A stretch of 55,062 bases of DNA, from the NCBI GenBank assembly GCA_031393885.1, contig JANMWG010000132.1, forward strand, positions 1-55,062, read 5' to 3'. The notes below the pieces were generated by a model that saw only the letters and a program-made list of their open reading frames with translations, searched no databases and was not told the origin of the DNA. Positions 7,927 through 44,861 of the stretch are shown piece by piece. Both the position numbers and the translations under genes were made by a program. Positions within the stretch are counted from its first letter, which is position 1; each line of letters starts with the position of its first letter. This DNA comes from Betaproteobacteria bacterium (GTDB lineage Bacteria > Pseudomonadota > Gammaproteobacteria > Burkholderiales > Ga0077523).

Positions 7927-7977
7927 GCTGAGCTCTCCGGAGCGGACGACCGCCGCCATGACCAAAACTGTATAGGC

Positions 7978-7996
7978 AATGAGAATGATTGTCAAT
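7978..7996. promoter_or_regulatory. Fur-box-like site upstream of bfd
   Basis: aatgagaatgattgtcaat contains the inverted repeat TGAGAAT-g-ATTGTCA and resembles GATAATGATAATCATTATC. It lies about 50 nt upstream of the bfd start. Confidence 0.6.
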
Positions 7997-8086
7997 CGTG
8001 CAGGGAGACGTGGATCGGCAACGCCGATCCTCATCCGGGAACGTCCGATTTCGACCGGTCACCTTGTACGCCTGGTCTTCTGCGGC

Positions 8087-8425
8087 TCACTTTCCGCCCG
8101 CGGCTGCCGGGCAGTCGGCGCACTGCGGGCCGGCGGCGCCCGCAAGACACCGCGACAACTCGGTCTCGAGAGCGCTGGCGGATCGTCGGCATGCGACCAC
8201 GCGCACCCCGTCGGCCTGCGCCTGGGTCCGAAAACTCTTCATCACGTTGTGACCGATGAAATCGGTGAACAGGATCAGCAGATCGAGATTGCGCGGCAGC
8301 GCCGGGAGGCGCTTCTGGTGTGTCGCATTGCGGCCGCTGACATGGCCCGCGATCGTGATACCCAGCGCGGCGAGTCGTTCGGGGATGTTTCCCAACCGGT
8401 CGGCACCGACGAGCATCGCATTCAT
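8087..8425 (-). CDS. DUF2325-like small protein
   Basis: 112 aa. MNAMLVGADRLGNIPERL...GHVSGRN...LDLLILFTDFIGHNVMKSF...VVACRRSASALE fits my recollection of the DUF2325 pattern. The C-terminus has CADC. Confidence 0.6.
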   Translation of the reverse strand: MNAMLVGADRLGNIPERLAALGITIAGHVSGRNATHQKRLPALPRNLDLLILFTDFIGHNVMKSFRTQAQADGVRVVACRRSASALETELSRCLAGAAGPQCADCPAAAGGK

Positions 8426-8498
8426 GTGGCGTCCTTTGCACAGGCCTGCCCGGTGTCAGCGGAGACGATCTCCACCGGATGGGCCCACGAACAGGTAA

Positions 8499-8525
8499 CA
8501 AATGATAACGATTCTCGTTTACAAG
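8499..8525. promoter_or_regulatory. Fur-box-like site in the DUF2325 / FTR1 divergent region
   Basis: caaatgataacgattctcgtttacaag reads as GATAAC GATTCT CGTTTAC, approximating the three-hexamer Fur model. It is an AT-rich island in GC-rich DNA. Confidence 0.5.
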
Positions 8526-8672
8526 AACAAGCCCTGTTGACGACGGCCTACGGTTTGCCCGCGCGTGAACCCGAGCGGTTTCCCGGTCGAGAACTTCTCG
8601 CGTTGCCGATTGGTCGATATTCCGCTGACGAGTACCATTCCTGCCTCGCTACATATCGCTGAAAGCCGCTCG

Positions 8673-10592
8673 ATGACCTTGTCCATCCTCCGCCGCGCCG
8701 TTGCCTTGCTCATGCTCTGCTTCGCCGGCATGACTTCCGTTCACGCGGCGGAAGGTGGCCAGGCGATCCTGCACCTGCTCGACTACGTCGCGGCCGAGTA
8801 TCCTCAGTGGGTGAAGAACGGAACGGTGCTCAACGAAAACGAGTATGCGGAGCAGGTCGAGTTCTCCGAGAACGCCAAGACCCTGATCGCGAAGCTCGAC
8901 CCGAACCCCGATCGCGAGCGGCTGGTACAGCGGGCACAGGCGCTGGCCGCAGCAGTGCGGGACAAGCAGGACGGCGCGCAGGTCACTTCCCTGGCCAATA
9001 GTCTCGAGACCGCGCTGATCGGCGCGTACAAACTCGAGGTCTCACCACGCAAGGTTCCGGACCCCGTGATCGCCCCGGCTCTGTATACCTCCCGCTGCGC
9101 ATCGTGCCATGGGGCCGAAGGACGCGGCGATGGCCCTGCCGCCGCCGCGCTCGATCCGAAACCGTCCAATTTCCGCGATGCCGCACGCCAGGGGCGCCGC
9201 AGCGTATACAGCCTCTACAGCACGATCACGCTCGGTGTGGATGGAACCGCGATGGCGGCGCACGCCGATCTGTCCGATGAGCAGCGTTGGGCCCTGGCCT
9301 TCAAGGTGAGCAACCTGTTGTTCGAACCGGCGCTGGTCGTGGCAGGATCGAAATATTGGACGCAGGGCAAGGGGGGCGATGTATTCCGGAGTCTTGCGGA
9401 CGTCGTGCTCGCGACGCCTGCCGACACGACGGCAAGGCATGGAGAAGTGGGCACCGCTGTCCTGGCCTACCTGCGCGCCAACCCGGGCGCGGTACAGGCG
9501 GCAGCCACACCCCTGGACTACGCGATACGCACGCTCGGCGACAGTCTGACCGCCTACCGCGAGGGCGATGGCAAGGGGGCCTACGAACTGGCTGTCAGCG
9601 CCTATCTCGAAGGGTTCGAACTGGTCGAGGGCAGCCTCGAAGGCATCGAACACGGTCTCAAGGCGCGGGTCGAAGAAAAGATGATCGGCTTTCGCAACAC
9701 CATCAAGACCGGCGGTCCGGTGACCACGCTGGAAGCGCAGCATCGCGAGCTGATCGGCATTCTTTCCGATGCGAAGTCCCGGCTCGCCGGTGGCGAAGTG
9801 TCACCGCAGGCGCAGTTCGTTTCGTCGCTCGTGATAATCCTGCGCGAAGGTCTGGAGGCCATCCTGGTGCTGGCTGGCATGGCGGCCTTCCTGAAGCGCA
9901 CGGGTCGGGAGGGTGGCCTTCGCTATCTCCATGGTGGCTGGATCGCGGCCCTGGTGCTGGGGTTGGTCACCTGGTGGATCGCGACCGCCCTCATCGAAGT
10001 GAGCGGCGCGCAACGCGAGGTCACCGAAGGGGTGACAGCGCTCATTGCCTCGGCAATGCTGCTCTACGTCGGTTTCTGGCTTCATTCCAGGGTGTCGGGG
10101 CAACGCTGGAATGCCTTCATCAAGAGCCAGGTGACCGGCGCGCTGGGCAAGGGCACCCTGTGGGGACTCACGGCGATCTCGTTCCTGGCGGTGTACCGCG
10201 AAGTGTTCGAGACGGTACTGTTCTATCAGGCACTGATCGCCCAGGGCGGGGCGCTCCCGGTACTGGCCGGATTCGGGATCGGTTGCGTACTGCTGGTCGG
10301 GCTGGCGGTGCTCATCATCCGCTATAGCGCCAAACTGCCGCTCGGCGTGTTCTTCGGCGTCAGTTCCGTGCTGCTGGCCGCAATGGCCGTGATCTTCGCC
10401 GGTCAGGGCGTGGCCGCGCTGCAGGCTGCGGGACGCCTGCCGGCCGATCCGGTCAATGGTCCGACCCTGCCGCTGCTGGGCATCTATCCCAACGTCCAGG
10501 GATTGGTGCTGCAACTGGTGCTGGTCGTGTTCATCGTGGCCGCATACCTCTACACCACCAAACCGCAGCCCAAGCCGCCCAAGCCCGCATAG
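8673..10592 (+). CDS. Cytochrome c / FTR1-family iron permease fusion
   Basis: Signal peptide MTLSILRRAVALLMLCFAGMTSVHA, haem site CASCHGAEGRGDG, then a polytopic C-half with two REXXE motifs (ILREGLEAI and VYREVFETV) typical of FTR1/EfeU. Confidence 0.85.
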   Translation: MTLSILRRAVALLMLCFAGMTSVHAAEGGQAILHLLDYVAAEYPQWVKNGTVLNENEYAEQVEFSENAKTLIAKLDPNPDRERLVQRAQALAAAVRDKQDGAQVTSLANSLETALIGAYKLEVSPRKVPDPVIAPALYTSRCASCHGAEGRGDGPAAAALDPKPSNFRDAARQGRRSVYSLYSTITLGVDGTAMAAHADLSDEQRWALAFKVSNLLFEPALVVAGSKYWTQGKGGDVFRSLADVVLATPADTTARHGEVGTAVLAYLRANPGAVQAAATPLDYAIRTLGDSLTAYREGDGKGAYELAVSAYLEGFELVEGSLEGIEHGLKARVEEKMIGFRNTIKTGGPVTTLEAQHRELIGILSDAKSRLAGGEVSPQAQFVSSLVIILREGLEAILVLAGMAAFLKRTGREGGLRYLHGGWIAALVLGLVTWWIATALIEVSGAQREVTEGVTALIASAMLLYVGFWLHSRVSGQRWNAFIKSQVTGALGKGTLWGLTAISFLAVYREVFETVLFYQALIAQGGALPVLAGFGIGCVLLVGLAVLIIRYSAKLPLGVFFGVSSVLLAAMAVIFAGQGVAALQAAGRLPADPVNGPTLPLLGIYPNVQGLVLQLVLVVFIVAAYLYTTKPQPKPPKPA

Positions 10593-10775
10593 CGCGCTGC
10601 CGGCCGGCCGGTACCAGACTGTCGCCGGCCACAGATCGGGAGTTTTTCCCGATCCCACGGCGCTTCTTCTCCGTCAGACTCCCTGGTCAAGGCGTGGCGA
10701 CACACGCCAGAGCCCCGATCCGATCGGGCTGCCTGCTGGCATCGCCGCTGCCAGCCACCTTCAGGGAGAGAATCG

Positions 10776-13037
10776 ATGCATTGGATACAAACGTGGCGTA
10801 GCGCGCCGTTGATCGTTGTCGGGCTGGCACCGTTCTGCGCCCACGCCGACAACCCCGCCGCAGCGCTGGAGGCCCCGCAAGTCGAAGTCATCGGCACCAC
10901 CCCCCTGCCGGTGCTTGCCACTCCGCTTCGCAACGTCCCGTCCAACATCCAGTCGGTCACCGACAGGGATCTCGAAAAACGCCGCGCCGGCGACATCACC
11001 GAGTTCATGGAAACCAACCTCGGCTCGGTGAACCTCAACCAGGCCCAGGCCAATCCGTTCCAACCGGACGTCAATTTTCGCGGCCTGACCGCATCGCACC
11101 TGCTGGGACTGCCGCAGGGGTTGTCGGTGTTCTACGACGGCGTCCGCGTGAACGAGGCATTCGGCGATACCGTGAACTGGGATCTCATTCCGCAATCGGC
11201 GATCGCCAACATGACGCTGGTGCCAGGATCGAACCCGGTCTACGGACTCAATACGCTGGGCGGAGCGCTCGCGATTCAGACCAAGTCGGGTTTCACCTAC
11301 CCCGGCGTGTCGGCAAGCGTCTACGGTGGTTCGTTCGGTCGACAATCGGCGACGATCGAAGCCGGTGGCCACGGCGAGCGCATCGACTACTTCGTGACCG
11401 GCAACTATCTCGAGGAGAACGGTTGGCGTCAGTTCTCGCCGAGCCGGGTCGCGAACGTGTTCGGCAAAGTCGGCTATCAGAACGACCGTACCGACTTCGA
11501 TCTGTCATACACCGGCGCCAACAACTCGCTCCAGGGGACCCAGGCATTGCCGCTGTCGATGTTCGGTGATCGCACCCAGCCCTACACCTGGCCGGACAGC
11601 ACCGCCAACACACTCAATTTTCTCAACGCCAAGGGGAGTCACTTCTTCAACGACACGACGCTGCTAGCCGCCAACCTCTACTACCGCCAACTGGATCAGG
11701 ACACGTTCGCGAGCAACGTCAACGACAACTGCGCCGGCGGGTGCCCCCCGGGAGCGTTCCCGGCATCCAACGATTCCTCGACGATCCGCCAGAAGGGAAC
11801 AGGCAGCAGCGTGCAGTTGTCGCTGCTCGATGACCTGTTCGGCAAAGGCAACCAGTTCACCGTCGGCGCCACTGCCGATCTGGGCGACACCCGCTACCGC
11901 CAGTTCAACCAGGAAGCGGTGTTCACGCCAAGCCGCGGAACAGCCGGCGTCTCCCCTTTCGTGCTCGACACCGATGTGAAGACGACCAATCACTATTACG
12001 GCGTTTTCGTGACCGACACGCTCACCCTCAACCCGAAATGGTCGATGACAGCGTCCGGACGCTACAACGTCGCGCAGGTGAAGATCACCGACCAGTCCGG
12101 CACCAATCCAGCCCTGAATGGCGACCACAAATTCATCCGCTTCAATCCGGCTCTGGGATTCACCTACAACCCGACAGCAACGGCCACGACCTACGCCAAC
12201 TACAGCGAAGGCATGCGGGCGCCGACACCGGTGGAACTCACCTGCGCGGATCCCGCCGCGCCCTGTCGCCTGCCGAATGCCTTTCTGGCCGACCCACCGC
12301 TCAAGCCGGTGGTGAGCCGCACCTACGAGGTGGGGGCTCGCGGCAAGCTCCTGGGGTGGCTGGGCTGGAACGCCGCATTGTTTCGCACCGATCTGCGCGA
12401 CGACATCCAGTTCATTTCGACCCAGGGCGCGACCCTCAACTCAGGCTATTTCCAGAACGTCGGCGACACCCGCAGGCAGGGGGTGGAACTCGGGGCACGG
12501 GCACAACGCGGTGCTCTCACGCTTACCGCCAACTACACCTATCTGCGGGCCACGTTCGAAAGCGGTTTCCTGCTGAACAGCCCCAACAATTCATCGCGCG
12601 ACGCCAACGGCGACATCCGGGTGGCGCCAGGCAACCGCATCCCGGGCATGCCGGCGCATCTGCTCAAGCTACGCGCCGACTACGCGTTCTCCGAAGGATT
12701 CATCGTCGGCGGCAACGCGCTGCTCTCCACCGATCAGTTTGCCCGTGGCGACGAAAACAACCAGGACCAGACCGGCAAGGTTCCGGGATACGCCGTCGTC
12801 AATCTCGATGCGCGGTACCAGATCACGCCGCAGATTCAGGTATTCGGACGACTGCTCAACTTGTTCGACCGAAAGTACGAAACCTTCGGCATCCTCGGAT
12901 CGAATTTCTTTCAGGGCGGAGCATTCAACCCGGTGAACGCTGGACCGGAGCAGTTCCGGGCGGTTTCGGCGCCGCGTGCGTTCTATGTCGGCGTGCGCTA
13001 CGACTTCACCAAGCCTACCGCCTCCGGAGCGCAGTGA
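10776..13037 (+). CDS. TonB-dependent outer-membrane receptor
   Basis: 753 aa with a signal peptide, plug region (VEVIGTTPLP...NLGSVNLNQAQANPFQPDVNFRGL) and a barrel ending ...AFYVGVRYDF, followed by an atypical 9-aa tail TKPTASGAQ. Confidence 0.9.
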   Translation: MHWIQTWRSAPLIVVGLAPFCAHADNPAAALEAPQVEVIGTTPLPVLATPLRNVPSNIQSVTDRDLEKRRAGDITEFMETNLGSVNLNQAQANPFQPDVNFRGLTASHLLGLPQGLSVFYDGVRVNEAFGDTVNWDLIPQSAIANMTLVPGSNPVYGLNTLGGALAIQTKSGFTYPGVSASVYGGSFGRQSATIEAGGHGERIDYFVTGNYLEENGWRQFSPSRVANVFGKVGYQNDRTDFDLSYTGANNSLQGTQALPLSMFGDRTQPYTWPDSTANTLNFLNAKGSHFFNDTTLLAANLYYRQLDQDTFASNVNDNCAGGCPPGAFPASNDSSTIRQKGTGSSVQLSLLDDLFGKGNQFTVGATADLGDTRYRQFNQEAVFTPSRGTAGVSPFVLDTDVKTTNHYYGVFVTDTLTLNPKWSMTASGRYNVAQVKITDQSGTNPALNGDHKFIRFNPALGFTYNPTATATTYANYSEGMRAPTPVELTCADPAAPCRLPNAFLADPPLKPVVSRTYEVGARGKLLGWLGWNAALFRTDLRDDIQFISTQGATLNSGYFQNVGDTRRQGVELGARAQRGALTLTANYTYLRATFESGFLLNSPNNSSRDANGDIRVAPGNRIPGMPAHLLKLRADYAFSEGFIVGGNALLSTDQFARGDENNQDQTGKVPGYAVVNLDARYQITPQIQVFGRLLNLFDRKYETFGILGSNFFQGGAFNPVNAGPEQFRAVSAPRAFYVGVRYDFTKPTASGAQ

Positions 13038-13123: not shown

Positions 13124-13195
13124 TTAGCGGTTTGCGATGTACATCGTGACTTCAAAGCCAAAACGCATTTCGGTATAGGCGGGCTTGGTCCACAT
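13124..13195 (-). CDS. pqqA: PQQ precursor peptide PqqA, second (orphan) copy
   Basis: The reverse complement reads ATG TGG ACC AAG CCC GCC TAT ACC GAA ATG CGT TTT GGC TTT GAA GTC ACG ATG TAC ATC GCA AAC CGC TAA, giving [23 protein letters not shown]. This is identical in protein sequence to the pqqA at 19067. AGGAG lies 7 nt upstream. Not in the ORF track because it is too short. Confidence 0.85.
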
Positions 13196-19066: not shown

Positions 19067-19138
19067 ATGTGGACCAAGCCCGCTTACACCGAAATGCGTT
19101 TCGGCTTTGAAGTCACGATGTACATCGCCAACCGCTGA
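19067..19138 (+). CDS. pqqA: PQQ precursor peptide PqqA
   Basis: ATGTGGACCAAGCCCGCTTACACCGAAATGCGTTTCGGCTTTGAAGTCACGATGTACATCGCCAACCGCTGA encodes [23 protein letters not shown], with the conserved E-x3-Y cross-link pair. GGAGG lies upstream. Compare Klebsiella [23 protein letters not shown]. Confidence 0.95.
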   Translation: MWTKPAYTEMRFGFEVTMYIANR

Positions 19139-39193: not shown

Positions 39194-39535
39194 TCAATAC
39201 TTGAGATGCAGACCTTCCTGGTGCGAGACGTAGGCGGCGATGTCGGCGATGTCCTGCTTCGAGAGGGCAGCCGCCATGGCATTCATGATCACGTTGATGC
39301 GCTTCTTGCTCTTGTAGGCGGCAAGGGTGTGCTTGATGTAGTCCTCGTGCTGACCCGCCAGCAGCGGATAGTCGGGCGTGATCGGCTTCGCCCCCTGCTC
39401 CCCGTGACACGCCTTGCAGGTTTCGAACTTGGTCTGCCCGGCGACCGGGTCACCACCCGCGATCGCCTGACCGCAGCCCCATCCGAATGACGCCATTGCA
39501 CTAGCCACGATAGCGACGCGAATTCGTTTGTTCAT
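39194..39535 (-). CDS. Monohaem c-type cytochrome (class I, c4-half-like)
   Basis: MNKRIRVAIVASAMASFGWG signal peptide, CKACHG haem site, and a distal Met region NVIMNAMA. Confidence 0.85.
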   Translation of the reverse strand: MNKRIRVAIVASAMASFGWGCGQAIAGGDPVAGQTKFETCKACHGEQGAKPITPDYPLLAGQHEDYIKHTLAAYKSKKRINVIMNAMAAALSKQDIADIAAYVSHQEGLHLKY

Positions 39536-39567
39536 GCTGTTTTCCTGCCTGGAATCCGGGGCGCCCA

Positions 39568-39897
39568 TCACTTGGGCGCGGACGAGTAATAGGCGGCCAG
39601 ATCGGCCATGTCCTGCTCGGACAGAGAGGCGGCGATGCTGCGCATCGACGGATGCTGTCGGTCTCCGGTCTTGTAGGCCTTGAGCGCCGCGACGATGTAG
39701 CCGGCATTCTGGCCGCCAAGCCTGGGGACCGAATAAACCTCGGGGTAGGCCGTCCGGAAGCCTTCGATGCCGTGACAGCCCTGGCACATCTGGGTTTTCT
39801 TGCTGCCCGCCGCCGCATCGCCTGCCGCCCAAACCGGCGCTGCCGTCGTCATGCAAATGCCCAGAGCCAGAAAGCTTGCGCCTAACTTCTTGATCAT
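39568..39897 (-). CDS. Monohaem c-type cytochrome (class I, c4-half-like)
   Basis: MIKKLGASFLALGICMTTAAPVWA signal peptide, CQGCHG haem site, and HPSMRSIA distal Met. Confidence 0.85.
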   Translation of the reverse strand: MIKKLGASFLALGICMTTAAPVWAAGDAAAGSKKTQMCQGCHGIEGFRTAYPEVYSVPRLGGQNAGYIVAALKAYKTGDRQHPSMRSIAASLSEQDMADLAAYYSSAPK

Positions 39898-39991
39898 GAT
39901 TATTTGGTGCCCCACAACGGGTTGTGTAAATCCCCTGAATTATCCGGGATACCACGGGGCACGGTCAACGCCCGAAATCAGGTGTCTGGCC

Positions 39992-40825
39992 TCAGCCTCC
40001 GGGCAGGGGAACACCTTCGATGATCACGGCCTTGTGGACATACCGCTTGTCGTGGGTGTCTTCCACGGTCGCCTCGAGCGCCCCTTCCTTCTCGGGAATG
40101 AAGTAGAACCGGAAGCTTGGATTGTCGGAGATGGAGAAATCGACATCGGCATCCATGACCGGCCGGCCGGCGTAGGTGACCGATACGTGGCGCACGAACT
40201 GGGGCACCTTGCTCGAATCGAAGTCCGACGCCATCGCCGATTCGTTGGGATGCCGGATCATGAGCTGCACCAGGGCAGGCTTGCTGGCTTCCACCGTTTC
40301 ATCGGCAAACCGGAACTTCATGGTGCCGACGAGATTCTCCGGCATGCGGTTCTTGTCGGCCGGCGCCGAGCAACCACCCGCCGCCTTGACCCACTTCGAC
40401 GACATGAACAACTCGCCATCGCTGGTCTCGGCGATCGCGCGCACGAAGCTGAAATCCTCGAATCGCAGGCGGGTTTCGATCTGCGCGCGCCCGCTCTCCG
40501 GGGTGAACCGGAAAATGCCGGCCACCGGCGAGGGATTGCGCTCGACGATAAGATAGACGTTTTTGATGTGGCGGCCGCTCGACTGGTCGATCTGCGCCTT
40601 GACCGACACCGGCACCGTGGAGGCGTCATCGGCCCGGGTGTTCAGATACATCCGGATCACATCCTTACCGTCGCGGATTTCCTTGTTGCCGAACATCATC
40701 TGCCGGATCGGCGGCCAGTACTGGCTCTGCGCGGGATCGGGCTCGGCCTTTTCGTTGGCGCCCGCGAGCAACGGCAGCGCCACCATGGCCACAGCCGCTA
40801 CGACGAATCTGACGAACGACCGCAT
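39992..40825 (-). CDS. Periplasmic SoxY-SoxZ fusion protein (quinoprotein-dehydrogenase-associated SoxYZ-like carrier type)
   Basis: Signal peptide MRSFVRFVVAAVAMVALPLLAGA. SoxY-like half ...ASTVPVSVKAQ...NPSPVAGIFRF...VRAIAETSDGELF...VKAAGGCSAP. SoxZ-like half ...LVQLMIRHPNESAM...VPQFVRHVSVTYAGRPVMDADVDFSISDNPSFRFYF. Confidence 0.75.
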   Translation of the reverse strand: MRSFVRFVVAAVAMVALPLLAGANEKAEPDPAQSQYWPPIRQMMFGNKEIRDGKDVIRMYLNTRADDASTVPVSVKAQIDQSSGRHIKNVYLIVERNPSPVAGIFRFTPESGRAQIETRLRFEDFSFVRAIAETSDGELFMSSKWVKAAGGCSAPADKNRMPENLVGTMKFRFADETVEASKPALVQLMIRHPNESAMASDFDSSKVPQFVRHVSVTYAGRPVMDADVDFSISDNPSFRFYFIPEKEGALEATVEDTHDKRYVHKAVIIEGVPLPGG

Positions 40826-40889
40826 CCTCACTCTCCCTGCAAGAATCTGGAACCCGGATGATAAGGCCTTATGCCCGGCACCCATAACC

Positions 40890-41831
40890 TTATTCCTCCC
40901 ACTCCAGTTCCGCGTAGGCCGCGGTCACGTTGCGGCGGTGAAACCGATCGAACGCGGCCCATCTGGATGCCTCCGACAGGCCCACGGTGTCGACCGCCTC
41001 CTCGATCGTCCGCCGCGCCTTGATCGCCGCACGCGTCTCACGCACGATCAGTTGCAGGTACTCCCGCTGGGGTTTCAACGCCTCGGGCCAGGGCAATGCG
41101 GTGCGCCCATGGCCGGGCACGAACTGGCGCGCCTCGATGCCGGCAAGCTGGTCGATCACGCGGATGAAGCCGGTGATGGTGCCATCCACCACCGGCGTGT
41201 GCTCGGCAAACAACAGATCGCCCAGCCACAGGGTGCCGGTCACCGGATCGAACACGGTCAGGTCGTTGTCGGTGTGCGCCGGTGGCCACGCATGAAGCAA
41301 GAGGGTACGGCCACCGAGATCGAGGGCGATTTCGTCCTTGACCAGCAATGTCGGCGGCACGACATCGCTGCCCGCCGCGAGGTCGCCGAGGTCGCGCTCG
41401 AGCGAGTTCAGGTACGGCCGCGCGCGCTGGCCCAGTGCCCGCGGAAGATTCTGGTGCCCCACGACGGTCGCGTTGTCCTGCCGAAAGGCCGCGGCACCGA
41501 AGAAATGATCGGGATGGGTATGGGTGATGATCACGTAGCACACCGGCTTGTCCGTGATCCGCCGCAGCGCCGCGCGCAGGGCCTGTCCGACCCGGAGCGA
41601 TCCGCCGGGATCGACCACGGCGACGCACCGCTCGCCGATGATGAAGCCGATGTTGGCCTGATCCCCCACGTTATCCGGCGTGCGATCGTCGAGGCTGCCG
41701 CGATGCACGTGATTGCCCGGTGCCACTTCTTCCACGGTGAAGCCGTCGAGCGGATCGGTCTCGGCCCGCGCTGAGGAAAAACCGACCACGAGAAGCATCG
41801 ACAACGCTATGGCGGCAGGATGACGTCGCAT
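40890..41831 (-). CDS. Periplasmic MBL-fold metallohydrolase (intact HxHxDH)
   Basis: Signal peptide MRRHPAAIALSMLLVVGFSSARA. VVDPGG...VIITHTHPDHFFG...HAWPPAHTDNDL...VPGHG. Confidence 0.85.
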   Translation of the reverse strand: MRRHPAAIALSMLLVVGFSSARAETDPLDGFTVEEVAPGNHVHRGSLDDRTPDNVGDQANIGFIIGERCVAVVDPGGSLRVGQALRAALRRITDKPVCYVIITHTHPDHFFGAAAFRQDNATVVGHQNLPRALGQRARPYLNSLERDLGDLAAGSDVVPPTLLVKDEIALDLGGRTLLLHAWPPAHTDNDLTVFDPVTGTLWLGDLLFAEHTPVVDGTITGFIRVIDQLAGIEARQFVPGHGRTALPWPEALKPQREYLQLIVRETRAAIKARRTIEEAVDTVGLSEASRWAAFDRFHRRNVTAAYAELEWEE

Positions 41832-41877
41832 GGGATAGGGGTCACGAACAAGACCCGGTATCCTAACCCGGTCCCGC

Positions 41878-41905
41878 CATTCCCCATTCCTCATTCCTCA
41901 TTCCT
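41878..41905. repeat. Heptanucleotide tandem repeat CATTCC(C/T) x4 in a divergent promoter region
   Basis: cattccc cattcct cattcct cattcct lies between the starts of the two MBL genes (41831 and 41962/41989). Confidence 0.85.
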
Positions 41906-41961
41906 TATGGTGATCGCATCGCGCGGTCGCCTGCGCCCCCCGTACCGCGAGCCTTGTCCGC

Positions 41962-42918
41962 ATGCCGTCCCGACCGTTGAGTTACCCGATGCTGCCGCGA
42001 GTGCTGGCAGCGCTATTTCTGCTGATGACCCTGACCTGCGCCGACGCCGATCCGCTCATGCCGGTCGAGGTTGCCCCCGGGGTGTACGCCTTCATCGCCG
42101 ACCTCGGCGAAGTCGCCCCCGGGAACGCCGGGCGGGTCGGCAACAGCGGCTTCGTCGTGGGCGCCACCGGCATCGCCGTCATCGACACCGGTGTCTCCCT
42201 CGAGCACGGTCGGGCCCTGCTCGCCGCGATCCGGCGGGTCAGCGGCCAGCCCGTGACCACCGTCATCATCACTCATCCGGTTCAGGAGTTCCTGTTCGGC
42301 AACGCCGCGTTCGAAGCTACCGGCGCACGGTTCATCACTCACCGGAAGAGCATCGACGTGATGCGACAGCGCTGCGACCATTGCCTCGACAACCTCCGCC
42401 TGATCCTGGGGCAGGAAGCCATGGCCGGGACCCGGCTGCTGATTCCGTCGCAGGCCATCGAGGGTGACCGCGAACGCATCGACATCGGCGGTCGGATGCT
42501 CGAGCTGTTGCACCCGGGTTGGGCGGCGACCCCGGGCGACCTGATGGTTCTGGACTCGATGACCGGTACGCTGTTCGCCGGTGGCGTGGTGTCGATCGAC
42601 CGCATCCCGGAGCTGCGCGACGCCGACTTCGGCGGCTGGGTGCGGGCCCTGGAACAACTGCCGCTGACCGGCGCGGGCGTGGTCATACCAGGTCACGGAC
42701 CACCGGTCCCGATCGGACAGGCGCGGGCCACGCTCGACTACCTGATGGCGCTCGACCTGCGGATGCGCAAGCTGTTCGACAGCGGCATCGGCCTGATGGA
42801 CGCCATCGAGGCGGCCGCAGTCCCCGCATTCGCCGACTGGGCGGGCTACCCGACCATCCACCGCAAGAACGCACTCGAACGCTACCTCCAGCTCGAACTC
42901 GACGAACTCGGCCGCTAA
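41962..42918 (+). CDS. Periplasmic MBL-fold paralogue with a degenerate metal motif
   Basis: Signal peptide ...MLPRVLAALFLLMTLTCADA. Collinear with 40890-41831 (VIDTG..., ...PGHG), but the HxHxDH position reads THPVQEF. The start is 41962 or 41989. Confidence 0.8.
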   Translation: MPSRPLSYPMLPRVLAALFLLMTLTCADADPLMPVEVAPGVYAFIADLGEVAPGNAGRVGNSGFVVGATGIAVIDTGVSLEHGRALLAAIRRVSGQPVTTVIITHPVQEFLFGNAAFEATGARFITHRKSIDVMRQRCDHCLDNLRLILGQEAMAGTRLLIPSQAIEGDRERIDIGGRMLELLHPGWAATPGDLMVLDSMTGTLFAGGVVSIDRIPELRDADFGGWVRALEQLPLTGAGVVIPGHGPPVPIGQARATLDYLMALDLRMRKLFDSGIGLMDAIEAAAVPAFADWAGYPTIHRKNALERYLQLELDELGR

Positions 42919-43584: not shown

Positions 43585-44145
43585 ATGAGCGTCTCGGACA
43601 ATATCGATGATCTGATGGCTCGTTGCGTGCTGCACGACCAGCGGGCCTTCCAGGAATTGTATCGGCGCACCTCCGGACGGCTACTGGCCGTGGCCATGCG
43701 CATCGTGCGCCGCCGCGACTGGGCCGAGGACGTTCTTCAGGAAAGCTTCGTGAACATCTGGAATCACGTACCGGAATACAGTCGGGTCAAGAGCGCGCCG
43801 ATGACGTGGATGACCGCGATCGTCCGCAATCGGGCACTCGACTGGGTCCGGCGCCCTAAGCACGAAACGTCGAGCGACGACCTCGATGAAATGATCGCCA
43901 ACTGGGAAGATGGCGCTGCCGGCCCGCCCGAGCGGCTGCAGATGGCCGGTGATCGCGTGCAACTCGATGAATGCCTCGGCCGCCTGTCCGGCCAGCAGCG
44001 CCAGTCGATCGCGCTGGCCTACTACCACGGGCTGTCGCACAGCGAGCTTGCCAGCCACATGGACCAGCCGCTCGGCACCATCAAGACCTGGATTCGGCGC
44101 GGCCTGGAAAAGCTGCGTGGTTGTCTCGAGTCGGCGGGGGTCTGA
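43585..44145 (+). CDS. ECF (sigma-70 family group 4) RNA polymerase sigma factor
   Basis: Region 2 DWAEDVLQESFVNIWN and region 4 LSGQQRQSIALAYYHGLSHSELASHMDQPLGTIKTWIRRGLEKLR. Confidence 0.9.
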   Translation: MSVSDNIDDLMARCVLHDQRAFQELYRRTSGRLLAVAMRIVRRRDWAEDVLQESFVNIWNHVPEYSRVKSAPMTWMTAIVRNRALDWVRRPKHETSSDDLDEMIANWEDGAAGPPERLQMAGDRVQLDECLGRLSGQQRQSIALAYYHGLSHSELASHMDQPLGTIKTWIRRGLEKLRGCLESAGV

Positions 44146-44147
44146 CG

Positions 44148-44861
44148 ATGCGCCTGAACAATCGTCACGCGAAGTCGATGCTGGCCGCGGAGTACGTGCT
44201 CGGCACGCTGCATGGAAAGGCCCGCGACCGCTTAGAACTCTGGCTGCGCACCGATCCGGAGTTGAGGCTGGAAGTGAATGCCTGGCAGGAACACCTCATG
44301 CCGCTCGCCACCTCGTTGCCGGAGCATGTTCCCCACGAACGCGTATGGCGAAGCATCGAGGCAAGGATCAACCCCGCCGCACCGGCGTCGAGCGGATGGC
44401 TGGCCAGCCTTGCCTTCTGGCGCTGGTCGTCGGCATTGTCGGCAGCAGCCGCAGCGGTACTGTTCGGTTTCATTGCCTTGTCTCCGAAAGACCAGATATT
44501 CATGCCCGCCAACGGCATGGTCGTGGTCATGGCCGACGACAAGGCAGACCCGCATGTGACCGTGGCATGGTCACCTGACTCGAGGGCGAAGCCCAAGCTG
44601 CGTGTCCGCGTCATGGGCCATGCGGAGATGGCCCCCGGGACCGCCTGGGAGTTGTGGATGCTGCCGGGCGGCGACCAGCCACCGAAATCCTGTGGCCTGA
44701 TCACGACCCACGACACGCAGTACGTCGAGATCCCGGTCGAAATGCTGCAACGCCTGTCCAAGGCTGCGGGTATGGCCATGAGCGTCGAACCCGCGGGGGG
44801 CTCGCCGACCGGGGCACCGACCGGCCCCGTTCTCTACTCGGGCAAGGCGGTCAGCATCTGA
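44148..44861 (+). CDS. Anti-sigma factor (RskA-like: N-terminal anti-sigma domain, one TM, periplasmic C-domain)
   Basis: Begins 2 nt after the sigma gene. AAEYVLGTLHGKARDRLE, TM LAFWRWSSALSAAAAAVLFGFIAL, C-terminal ...WELWMLPGG..P.S.G.... Confidence 0.75.
   Translation: MRLNNRHAKSMLAAEYVLGTLHGKARDRLELWLRTDPELRLEVNAWQEHLMPLATSLPEHVPHERVWRSIEARINPAAPASSGWLASLAFWRWSSALSAAAAAVLFGFIALSPKDQIFMPANGMVVVMADDKADPHVTVAWSPDSRAKPKLRVRVMGHAEMAPGTAWELWMLPGGDQPPKSCGLITTHDTQYVEIPVEMLQRLSKAAGMAMSVEPAGGSPTGAPTGPVLYSGKAVSI

Follow-up and report, generated by a model that had tools for sequence, protein, structure and literature searches.

The window analysed here is an entire contig of 55,062 bp from the metagenome-assembled genome (MAG) of an uncultured Burkholderiales bacterium. 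Between two groups of housekeeping genes it encodes a SoxY-SoxZ fusion protein (the carrier), two proteins of the metallo-beta-lactamase (MBL) fold, here designated MBL1 and MBL2, and two cytochromes c, CytA and CytB (Table 1). A preliminary description of the sequence took these five genes for a single periplasmic module. All five open reading frames (ORFs) are present in the ORF listing at the coordinates it gave, each product has a Sec signal-peptide-like N-terminus as judged by eye, and the products of the module look periplasmic. The analysis below delimits the functional unit as MBL2, MBL1 and the carrier, three genes and not five.

A SoxY-SoxZ fusion carrier with two MBL-fold partners

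Hidden Markov model (HMM) searches bore out the earlier reading of the carrier as SoxY in its N-terminal half and SoxZ in its C-terminal half. Pfam recovered SoxY over residues 42–152 (110.6 bits) and SoxZ over residues 178–265 (72.2 bits), and the NCBIfam carrier model TIGR04557 matched over profile positions 1–225 of 226 (217.4 bits, cut-off 140; E = 1.5e-64). With MBL1 likewise above the cut-off of TIGR04559, the NCBIfam family names given in the preliminary description were the correct ones. The carrier falls under the cut-offs of both SoxY_true (TIGR04488; 71.7 against 125) and SoxZ_true (TIGR04490; 50 against 76). By these scores, by its internal cysteine and by the lack of sox genes in the window, it is not a canonical Sox-system SoxY or SoxZ.

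The internal cysteine, C152, is the last residue of a GGC motif that is read directly from the translation and aligns with the GGC of 4uwq_B, a solved SoxY from Thermus. A HMMER search with the carrier against 1.84 billion cluster representatives returned 1489 relatives at E ≤ 0.001. When the query was aligned with 110 full-length representatives from the best 150 hits, at no more than 50% identity, the first glycine was present in 111/111 sequences and the second glycine and the cysteine in 109/111 each, with the loop consensus VKA[SA]GGCSAP; C152 is invariant among 59 close homologues. The AlphaFold2 (AF2) model (predicted local distance difference test score, pLDDT, 82) comprises two beta-sandwich domains, which superpose singly on Paracoccus SoxY 2ox5_B (target-normalised template-modelling score, TMt, 0.83) and SoxZ 2oxg_E (TMt 0.87). 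Between these domains the GGC lies at the start of a low-confidence, flexible linker (residues 147–168; pLDDT 58 for residues 151–160). Because the motif is aligned and conserved, is placed in the linker, and is flanked by domains that superpose on SoxY and SoxZ, a SoxY swinging-arm cysteine turned internal through fusion is a fair description of the protein. A Foldseek search with the whole two-domain carrier gave tandem-immunoglobulin proteins (RbmA, transglutaminase) as top matches, which we set aside as non-specific; only the single-domain matches to SoxY and SoxZ are meaningful.

The database gene call for the carrier begins at 40885 and predicts 297 aa; homologues have 277–280 aa. Three carrier positions, P62, D95 and G197, are 93–96% conserved family-wide but carry N, E and A in this clade, where these residues are fixed. 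The substitutions P62N, D95E and G197A may be a sign that the orphan variant has diverged in function.

The MBL1 gene shares its strand with the carrier gene and ends 64 nt upstream of the carrier start; the protein has the intact HTHPDH motif ascribed to it earlier. It scores 387.2 bits against TIGR04559 (quinoprotein relay system zinc metallohydrolase 2; cut-off 280). We aligned 37 MBL1-type and 33 MBL2-type proteins encoded in the window, at 31 orthologous loci and on annotated plasmids. The equivalents of H116, H118, D120, H121, H196, D221 and H263 are each invariant in 37/37 MBL1-type sequences. The closest solved structures by sequence are 8d2z and Chd (6uxu), and the GloB model matches weakly at the N-terminus.

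MBL2 had been described as a second, divergently transcribed hydrolase. Its MBL fold is upheld by Pfam, AF2 and Foldseek, but the metal site is destroyed: HPVQEF replaces HxHxDH and five of the seven ligands are lost. Among MBL2-type proteins H116 is kept in 32/33, H118 is V, M or I, D120 is E, H121 is F, H196 is S or A, and D221 is G or S; a sixth ligand, H263, is only partly kept among orthologues (22/33). The Pfam Lactamase_B match is confined to residues 58–106, and MBL2 remains under both NCBIfam cut-offs (TIGR04559, 206.7 against 280; TIGR04558, 189.0 against 300). So does its Azoarcus orthologue (TIGR04558, 145 against 300; TIGR04559, 181 against 280), which NCBI labels only as an "MBL fold metallo-hydrolase". 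With a full ligand set in 37/37 MBL1-type proteins and these losses in the MBL2 type, MBL1 is likely active, whereas MBL2, its metal site destroyed, is no candidate hydrolase and is best read, on sequence grounds, as a pseudo-enzyme.

The MBL2 type has a signature of its own, a CxxC found in 33/33 MBL2-type and 0/37 MBL1-type sequences. It is mostly CxHC (CDHC in the window), and 72 database homologues all have both cysteines, C138 and C141. The AF2 model of MBL2 (pLDDT 94) shows the MBL fold with a C-terminal helical extension, and its top Foldseek matches are MBL proteins, 8d2z (an uncharacterised Burkholderia MBL) and Chd among them (query-normalised score, TMq, 0.70–0.77; 6uxu 0.77). The CxHC is placed midway along a long helix (residues 128–149). 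In Chd, His143 and Asp146 from each monomer bind a structural zinc at the dimer interface (PMC12784990); in our alignment these two residues fall one position off C138 and C141, on the homologous helix. The MBL2 cysteines could bind a metal between subunits or else form a redox pair. A haem-binding site was considered and rejected, the motif being CDHCL and not CxxCH.

Table 1 Coordinates of features in the window
Feature	Position	Strand	Remarks
FTR1-fusion ORF	8565-10592	+	cytochrome c domain joined to FTR1 iron permease domain
TonB-dependent receptor gene	10776-13037		convergent with second pqqA
pqqA, second copy	13124-13195	-	identical to the copy at 19067
pqqA	19067-19138	+	directly precedes pqqB
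pqqB, pqqC, pqqD, pqqE	to 22336		follow pqqA
cytB	39194-39535	-	113 aa, Pfam Cytochrom_C, one CxxCH
cytA	39568-39897	-	109 aa, Pfam Cytochrom_C, one CxxCH
Promoter-like element, carrier-cytA spacer	39939-39968	-	TTGACC-18-GATAAT
SoxY-SoxZ fused carrier	39992-40825	-	277 aa, signal peptide, TIGR04557
Carrier residues 62, 95, 197	about 40235-40642		P62N, D95E, G197A
Carrier GGC motif (G150 G151 C152)	40370-40378	-	predicted adduct-bearing Cys
MBL1	40890-41831	-	313 aa, TIGR04559, SoxH-like, predicted binuclear metallohydrolase
MBL1 HTHPDH motif	41505-41522	-	from translation
MBL1/MBL2 divergent control region	41832-41961		from reading of the sequence
Four tandem CATTCCT heptamers	41878-41905		Tandem Repeats Finder; within MBL1/MBL2 spacer
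MBL2	41962-42918	+	318 aa, MBL-fold paralogue, divergent from MBL1
MBL2 HPVQEF motif	42274-42291	+	from translation
MBL2 CDHC (CxHC)	42373-42384	+	from translation
ECF sigma factor and RskA-type anti-sigma factor	43585-44861	+	downstream of MBL2 and cobO

Conservation of the three genes and their neighbourhood

Orthologous loci sharing synteny with the window were found in 31 species-level genomes (L001–L031; carrier identity 61–95%). MBL2, MBL1 and the carrier are kept together in all 31 wherever the contig reaches, with the three ORFs intact, a clustering beyond chance. Ratios of nonsynonymous to synonymous substitution rates (dN/dS) between the window and seven of these loci, with dS near saturation, are 0.13–0.27 for the carrier, 0.21–0.31 for MBL1 and 0.33–0.47 for MBL2, against 0.15–0.18 for nth; purifying selection on the carrier equals in strength that on nth or tldD. 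From these ratios and the conservation in 31 genomes it follows that the trio is functional and no relic. One could otherwise suppose a decaying, non-functional remnant of a lost xoxF cluster, given that xoxF, xoxG, xoxJ and two accessory secreted proteins are missing and that three family-conserved carrier positions are substituted. Besides the intact ORFs and low dN/dS, the retention of all carrier and catalytic motifs speaks against decay; this idea is largely refuted by the conservation, and we hold it to be most improbable.

The preliminary description had pointed out that neither a pyrroloquinoline quinone (PQQ) dehydrogenase nor a sox gene adjoins the carrier. Pfam annotation of 38 window ORFs, together with tblastn, extends this to the whole 55 kb, and tblastn found no PQQ dehydrogenase within 10 kb at any of the 31 orthologous loci, where sox genes are likewise absent over that distance; XoxF, XoxG and XoxJ queries likewise had no match in the window or at these loci. 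Such a context was rightly called unusual: of nine related loci that lie outside the clade, seven have a XoxF-type dehydrogenase within 10 kb. In this clade the module would work away from dedicated PQQ dehydrogenase gene clusters.

The two cytochromes do not share the constancy of the trio. The best Protein Data Bank matches are cytochrome c4 6q2u (2e-21), c-552 and c-554 for CytA, and 6q2u (2e-24) for CytB. Both are class I c-type domains with CxxCH and a distal Met and clear c4-domain homology, each encoded by a single-haem gene; true cytochrome c4 is dihaem. They behave as a split pair, conserved pairwise in Ralstonia too. The xoxG-type cytochromes of Azoarcus and Phyllobacterium had no tblastn match in the window at E ≤ 1e-5, and neither CytA nor CytB matched an NCBIfam methanol-related cytochrome. 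At orthologous loci extending far enough there are two cytochromes in 21, four in 5 (L012, L014, L020, L025 and L028) and none in 2 (L015 and L024). In the five with four, an extra cytA-like/cytB-like pair (36–55% identity) lies between cytB and DUF1841, at about 11.7–12.2 kb; this second pair may be a fused dihaem c4. As the trio is unchanged where the second pair occurs, the cytochrome block expands and contracts independently of it. Ralstonia solanacearum MolK2 (L041) has the gene arrangement of the window near rnfB/nth, with DUF1841 (+) convergent with cytB (-) and cytA (-, 64% identical); MoxR and VWA genes come next, with neither a carrier nor an MBL gene at this locus.

The spacer of 95 nt between carrier and cytA contains TTGACC-18-GATAAT, which matches the promoter consensus at 10/12 positions. 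The pattern GTTGACC-N17-nAnAAT is conserved at fixed spacing in most of 27 aligned orthologous spacers (those of L001–L030 in which both genes occur), with diverged flanks. No terminator was found by scanning the minus-strand stretches that separate MBL1, the carrier and cytA, so that the case for separate transcription of the cytochromes is made by the conserved promoter-like element and not by a terminator.

These observations bear on the proposal of a five-gene periplasmic module in which electrons from oxidation of a carrier-bound substrate leave through CytA and CytB. In its favour, the genes are adjacent, four of them on one strand with short spacers. Moreover, c4-like domains accept electrons in sulfur enzymes (TsdBA, 5lo9; flavocytochrome c), and in a Thiotrichaceae MAG described below the carrier gene adjoins soxC and a cytochrome. 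Yet the cytochromes are absent or doubled while the trio is constant, they occur in Ralstonia with no carrier, and they are preceded by their own promoter-like element; in other taxa no c4-like cytochromes come after the canonical modules. As to the electron exit, the trio proteins have no redox cofactor motif and no local oxidoreductase is encoded that could serve as donor to CytA or CytB. Neither the five-gene module nor the exit route is therefore supported, and we consider the proposal very unlikely. The cytochromes are judged to be housekeeping neighbours, probably respiratory and of c4-domain type, not members of the module.

Housekeeping genes enclose the locus on both sides: pyrD, a glutamate-synthase-like flavoprotein, an rnfB-like ferredoxin, nth and DUF1841 on one flank, and a PduO-type cobalamin adenosyltransferase, extracytoplasmic function (ECF) sigma and anti-sigma factors, a cyclic nucleotide monophosphate-binding protein, tldD and yhdP on the other. 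No RNA family of Rfam was matched anywhere in the window, a cobalamin riboswitch before the adenosyltransferase gene beside MBL2 included. The ECF sigma factor and its RskA-type anti-sigma factor, encoded on the same strand as MBL2, were considered as part of the module core and rejected; they are missing at four syntenic loci (L006, L007, L009, L011) and thus are probably not tied to it. The CATTCCT array in the spacer between MBL1 and MBL2 is common only to the closest relative, L001, and may serve to bind a regulator or be DNA prone to slippage.

Further away, the window encodes pqqABCDE, as stated earlier, and therefore the organism makes PQQ. The extra pqqA is also confirmed; it is an identical copy encoding 23 residues, 6 kb from the pqq operon and convergent with a TonB-dependent receptor gene. 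A single ORF elsewhere in the window joins a cytochrome c domain to an FTR1 iron permease domain. Its surroundings are iron-related (bacterioferritin, DUF2325, two TonB-dependent receptors and a NikR-like regulator).

Related modules and candidate functions

Carrier relatives were found on 146 plasmid or chromid records. On pAZKH of Azoarcus KH32C the order is xoxF-xoxG-xoxJ-hyp1-hyp2-MBL(TIGR04559)-carrier-MBL2-like, with trio genes that overlap or abut (7970–8929, 8920–9753 and 9754–10707). Outside the clade of the window the MBL2 type is seen only in betaproteobacterial examples, Azoarcus, Caballeronia and L033, a locus at which all three members of the trio are present. Alphaproteobacterial modules are without MBL2. 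In Phyllobacterium, Sinorhizobium and Ruegeria the MBL and carrier genes adjoin xoxF5-xoxG-xoxJ, a CXXCW protein and pqq genes, and Ruegeria has fghA and glutathione (GSH)-formaldehyde dehydrogenase beside xoxF5; in Azospirillum an MBL-carrier pair lies within a tetrahydromethanopterin (H4MPT)/fae cluster. The CXXCW protein of the canonical clusters is rhodanese-like, and a thioredoxin-family gene is also present there. Two further conserved secreted proteins are encoded beside the carrier in the canonical xoxF-linked modules (L033–L040; for example L035 6904–7985 and L040 9739–10796). One, of ~115 aa, has four conserved cysteines in a C-terminal DYPT..GC...C.C...C pattern, and the other has ~230 aa; neither matches a Pfam family and neither was found in the window. 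A different setting is seen in the Thiotrichaceae MAG (L032; CAJJDJ010000139.1, 5169–8357), where a carrier scoring 220 bits against TIGR04557 lies beside a soxC-type sulfite/sulfane dehydrogenase (TIGR04555; 583 bits, cut-off 420) and a c-type cytochrome, with no MBL and no PQQ dehydrogenase at the locus. Members of the quinoprotein-associated carrier model can therefore occupy a sulfur-oxidation context.

Our tentative preference is to read the trio as a betaproteobacterial, detached form of a module that is known from computation, in which MBL1 would hydrolyse an adduct on the carrier cysteine and MBL2 would be non-catalytic. Some group would become covalently bound to the thiol of C152, and MBL1 would remove it hydrolytically, regenerating the free thiol. 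The sequence of events proposed in the preliminary description, a covalent cysteine adduct released by a glyoxalase-II-like MBL, is plausible, and a sulfur species would serve equally well as the group carried. Of the candidates, a persulfide or S-sulfonate is favoured and is itself no better than possible; a carbonyl adduct (thiohemiacetal or thioester) comes second and appears unlikely. MBL2 might pair with MBL1 or dock the carrier. Its CxHC could then form an inter-subunit structural metal site, like His143/Asp146 of Chd, or act as a redox-active dithiol that frees a disulfide-blocked carrier, like thioredoxin SoxS. In the Sox system SoxB releases the adduct from SoxY, the task given here to MBL1, and the thioredoxin SoxS frees the disulfide-blocked carrier, and to our knowledge every characterised SoxY carries sulfur. 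We lean towards sulfur because of this precedent, the rhodanese-like CXXCW protein, the carrier linked to soxC in L032, and the recurrence of SoxH-like MBLs beside soxYZ in Campylobacterota, where release of sulfate from SoxY has been proposed (PMC10045233, PMC11237559).

Several points weigh against this account. Outside the clade the module accompanies xoxF, xoxG, xoxJ, H4MPT and glutathione-formaldehyde genes, not sulfur genes, and many of its hosts are not sulfur oxidisers (PMC11237559); such neighbourhoods are at least as compatible with a role related to carbonyls or PQQ. The window also lacks a candidate for loading the carrier, whether a SoxAX-like enzyme or a rhodanese. The alignment that places the CxHC at the Chd zinc site is out of register by one residue, and the evidence for a cytochrome promoter is consensus-based, so that read-through from carrier to cytA may occur. 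Random-barcode transposon sequencing of the Pseudomonas putida homologues PP_2677 and PP_2678 gave minimal phenotypes under lanthanide-free conditions (PMC12997753). Our literature search on these families returned a review and passing mentions, with no biochemical study of any member, and a search for SoxH as a metallo-beta-lactamase in a thiosulfate context had no match.

The neighbourhoods just cited suggest a carbonyl relay as an alternative. Here the carrier cysteine would trap periplasmic formaldehyde or acetaldehyde as a thiohemiacetal, a remote PQQ dehydrogenase would oxidise it to a thioester, and MBL1 would be a glyoxalase-II-like thioesterase that frees the acid, with MBL2 as adaptor; the whole would mirror the glutathione/formaldehyde pathway in the periplasm, with a protein as the tether. 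The XoxF-type dehydrogenases near 7 of 9 loci outside the clade, the Azospirillum pair inside a formaldehyde cluster, the Ruegeria genes for GSH-dependent formaldehyde oxidation, the GloB match of MBL1 and the pqqABCDE genes of the window are all consistent with it. The relay would, however, need a distant dehydrogenase, as there is none in the window or within 10 kb at the 31 orthologous loci, and among solved structures MBL1 is closest to Chd and the uncharacterised Burkholderia MBL, not to glyoxalase II. The sulfur cargo of the characterised SoxY proteins and the link to soxC in L032 also count against it, and on balance we think this relay improbable.

Less probable still is a thiol-redox service to quinoproteins, in which the carrier cysteine and an MBL2 CxHC relay would make or repair the vicinal Cys-Cys disulfide of PQQ dehydrogenases or shield PQQ from nucleophilic sulfur, while MBL1 clears dead-end adducts. 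This role has been raised for PP_2666, PP_2677 and PP_2678 in a review of the ped cluster (PMC12997753). It would suit the invariant CxHC, which is confined to MBL2-type proteins, and the company kept by canonical clusters, a four-cysteine protein of ~115 aa, a CXXCW protein and a thioredoxin-family gene. Because alphaproteobacterial modules do without MBL2, though, the CxHC is not essential to the core function of the family. Its position in the middle of a helix, where Chd has a structural zinc site, is unusual for a redox-active pair, and this clade has no linked target dehydrogenase. Pseudomonas aeruginosa ExaA, moreover, has a vicinal disulfide in an organism with no such genes (PMC12997753). 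A further unlikely option, to which we give about the same weight, is a self-contained periplasmic protein-thiol detoxification cycle: C152 would scavenge sulfite, persulfide, formaldehyde or other aldehydes, MBL1 would regenerate the thiol, and the CxHC pseudo-MBL would be an obligatory regulatory or redox partner. If true in this orphan context, it would mean that the function of the family is independent of a dedicated PQQ dehydrogenase, overturning the assumption built into the database name.

Comparison with known systems

SoxYZ-like carriers with SoxH-like hydrolases are recurrent, conserved companions of lanthanide/PQQ alcohol dehydrogenases (XoxF, PedH), and their role is an acknowledged gap in the biology of methylotrophy and the ped cluster. 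The family itself is already known: NCBIfam names it, a few papers mention it, and a routine automatic annotation would assign the carrier and MBL1 to it. To a specialist the locus is thus a contextual variant of an automatically annotatable family and of moderate surprise. What is new is its orphan housekeeping context, conserved across a large uncultured Burkholderiales clade, the delineation of a three-gene unit from which the cytochromes are excluded, and the recognition of the CxHC pseudo-MBL as a third component without a named database family. Purifying selection maintains the unit where no dehydrogenase cluster is near, and functional models must accommodate these constraints. Cultured strains of Azoarcus and Caballeronia with the same trio offer natural experimental systems.

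The closest annotated relatives are the xoxF clusters of Azoarcus KH32C and Caballeronia sp. M1242 (carrier identity 44%). They encode the same three proteins, including the degenerate CxxC type of MBL2 (ISHGLPEF/CAIC and ITHQAPEF/CSIC). Their trio is co-directional, overlapping and directly 3′ of xoxFGJ, whereas in the window MBL2 is divergent and xoxFGJ, hyp1 and hyp2 are missing. More broadly, the trio resembles the TIGR04557/TIGR04559 module of P. putida (PP_2677/PP_2678, beside pedH), M. extorquens (META1p1703-1705) and the SoxYZ-S2/S4 clades of lucinid symbionts in passing the HMM cut-offs, in the order MBL then carrier, and in the GGCSAP loop. It differs in its housekeeping surroundings, where a PQQ dehydrogenase, a xoxG-type cytochrome, a xoxJ-type binding protein, the CXXCW protein and both accessory proteins are missing. 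The cytochromes that do adjoin it are unrelated to the XoxG/cL-type partners of PQQ dehydrogenases; they share the CxxCH-plus-Met class I domain with cytochromes c4, c-552 and c-554, as two separate monohaem genes and not one dihaem gene.

With canonical SoxYZ and SoxB the locus has in common the SoxY and SoxZ folds, a cysteine aligned with the sulfur-carrying one of SoxY and the logic of a carrier with a regenerating metallohydrolase. Its carrier is fused, however, with the cysteine internal (GGCSAP) and not in a C-terminal GGCGG, its hydrolase has the MBL fold and is not SoxB, and soxAX, soxB and soxCD are absent. SoxH of the soxCDYZH clusters of Campylobacterota, for which sulfate release is proposed (PMC10045233, PMC11237559), is likewise a periplasmic MBL-fold protein found repeatedly beside a SoxY/Z carrier; MBL1 belongs to the PQQ-context subfamily (model SoxH_rel_PQQ_2), and the activity of both subfamilies is predicted only. 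Chd (6uxu) and the Burkholderia cenocepacia protein 8d2z, the closest solved structures to both MBL1 and MBL2, share with them the C-terminal helical extension, and Chd binds its dimer zinc through an i/i+3 pair on the helix that carries the CxHC in MBL2. Identity is 22–23%, and Chd uses a mononuclear catalytic zinc on a small aromatic substrate, whereas MBL2 is without the catalytic ligands.

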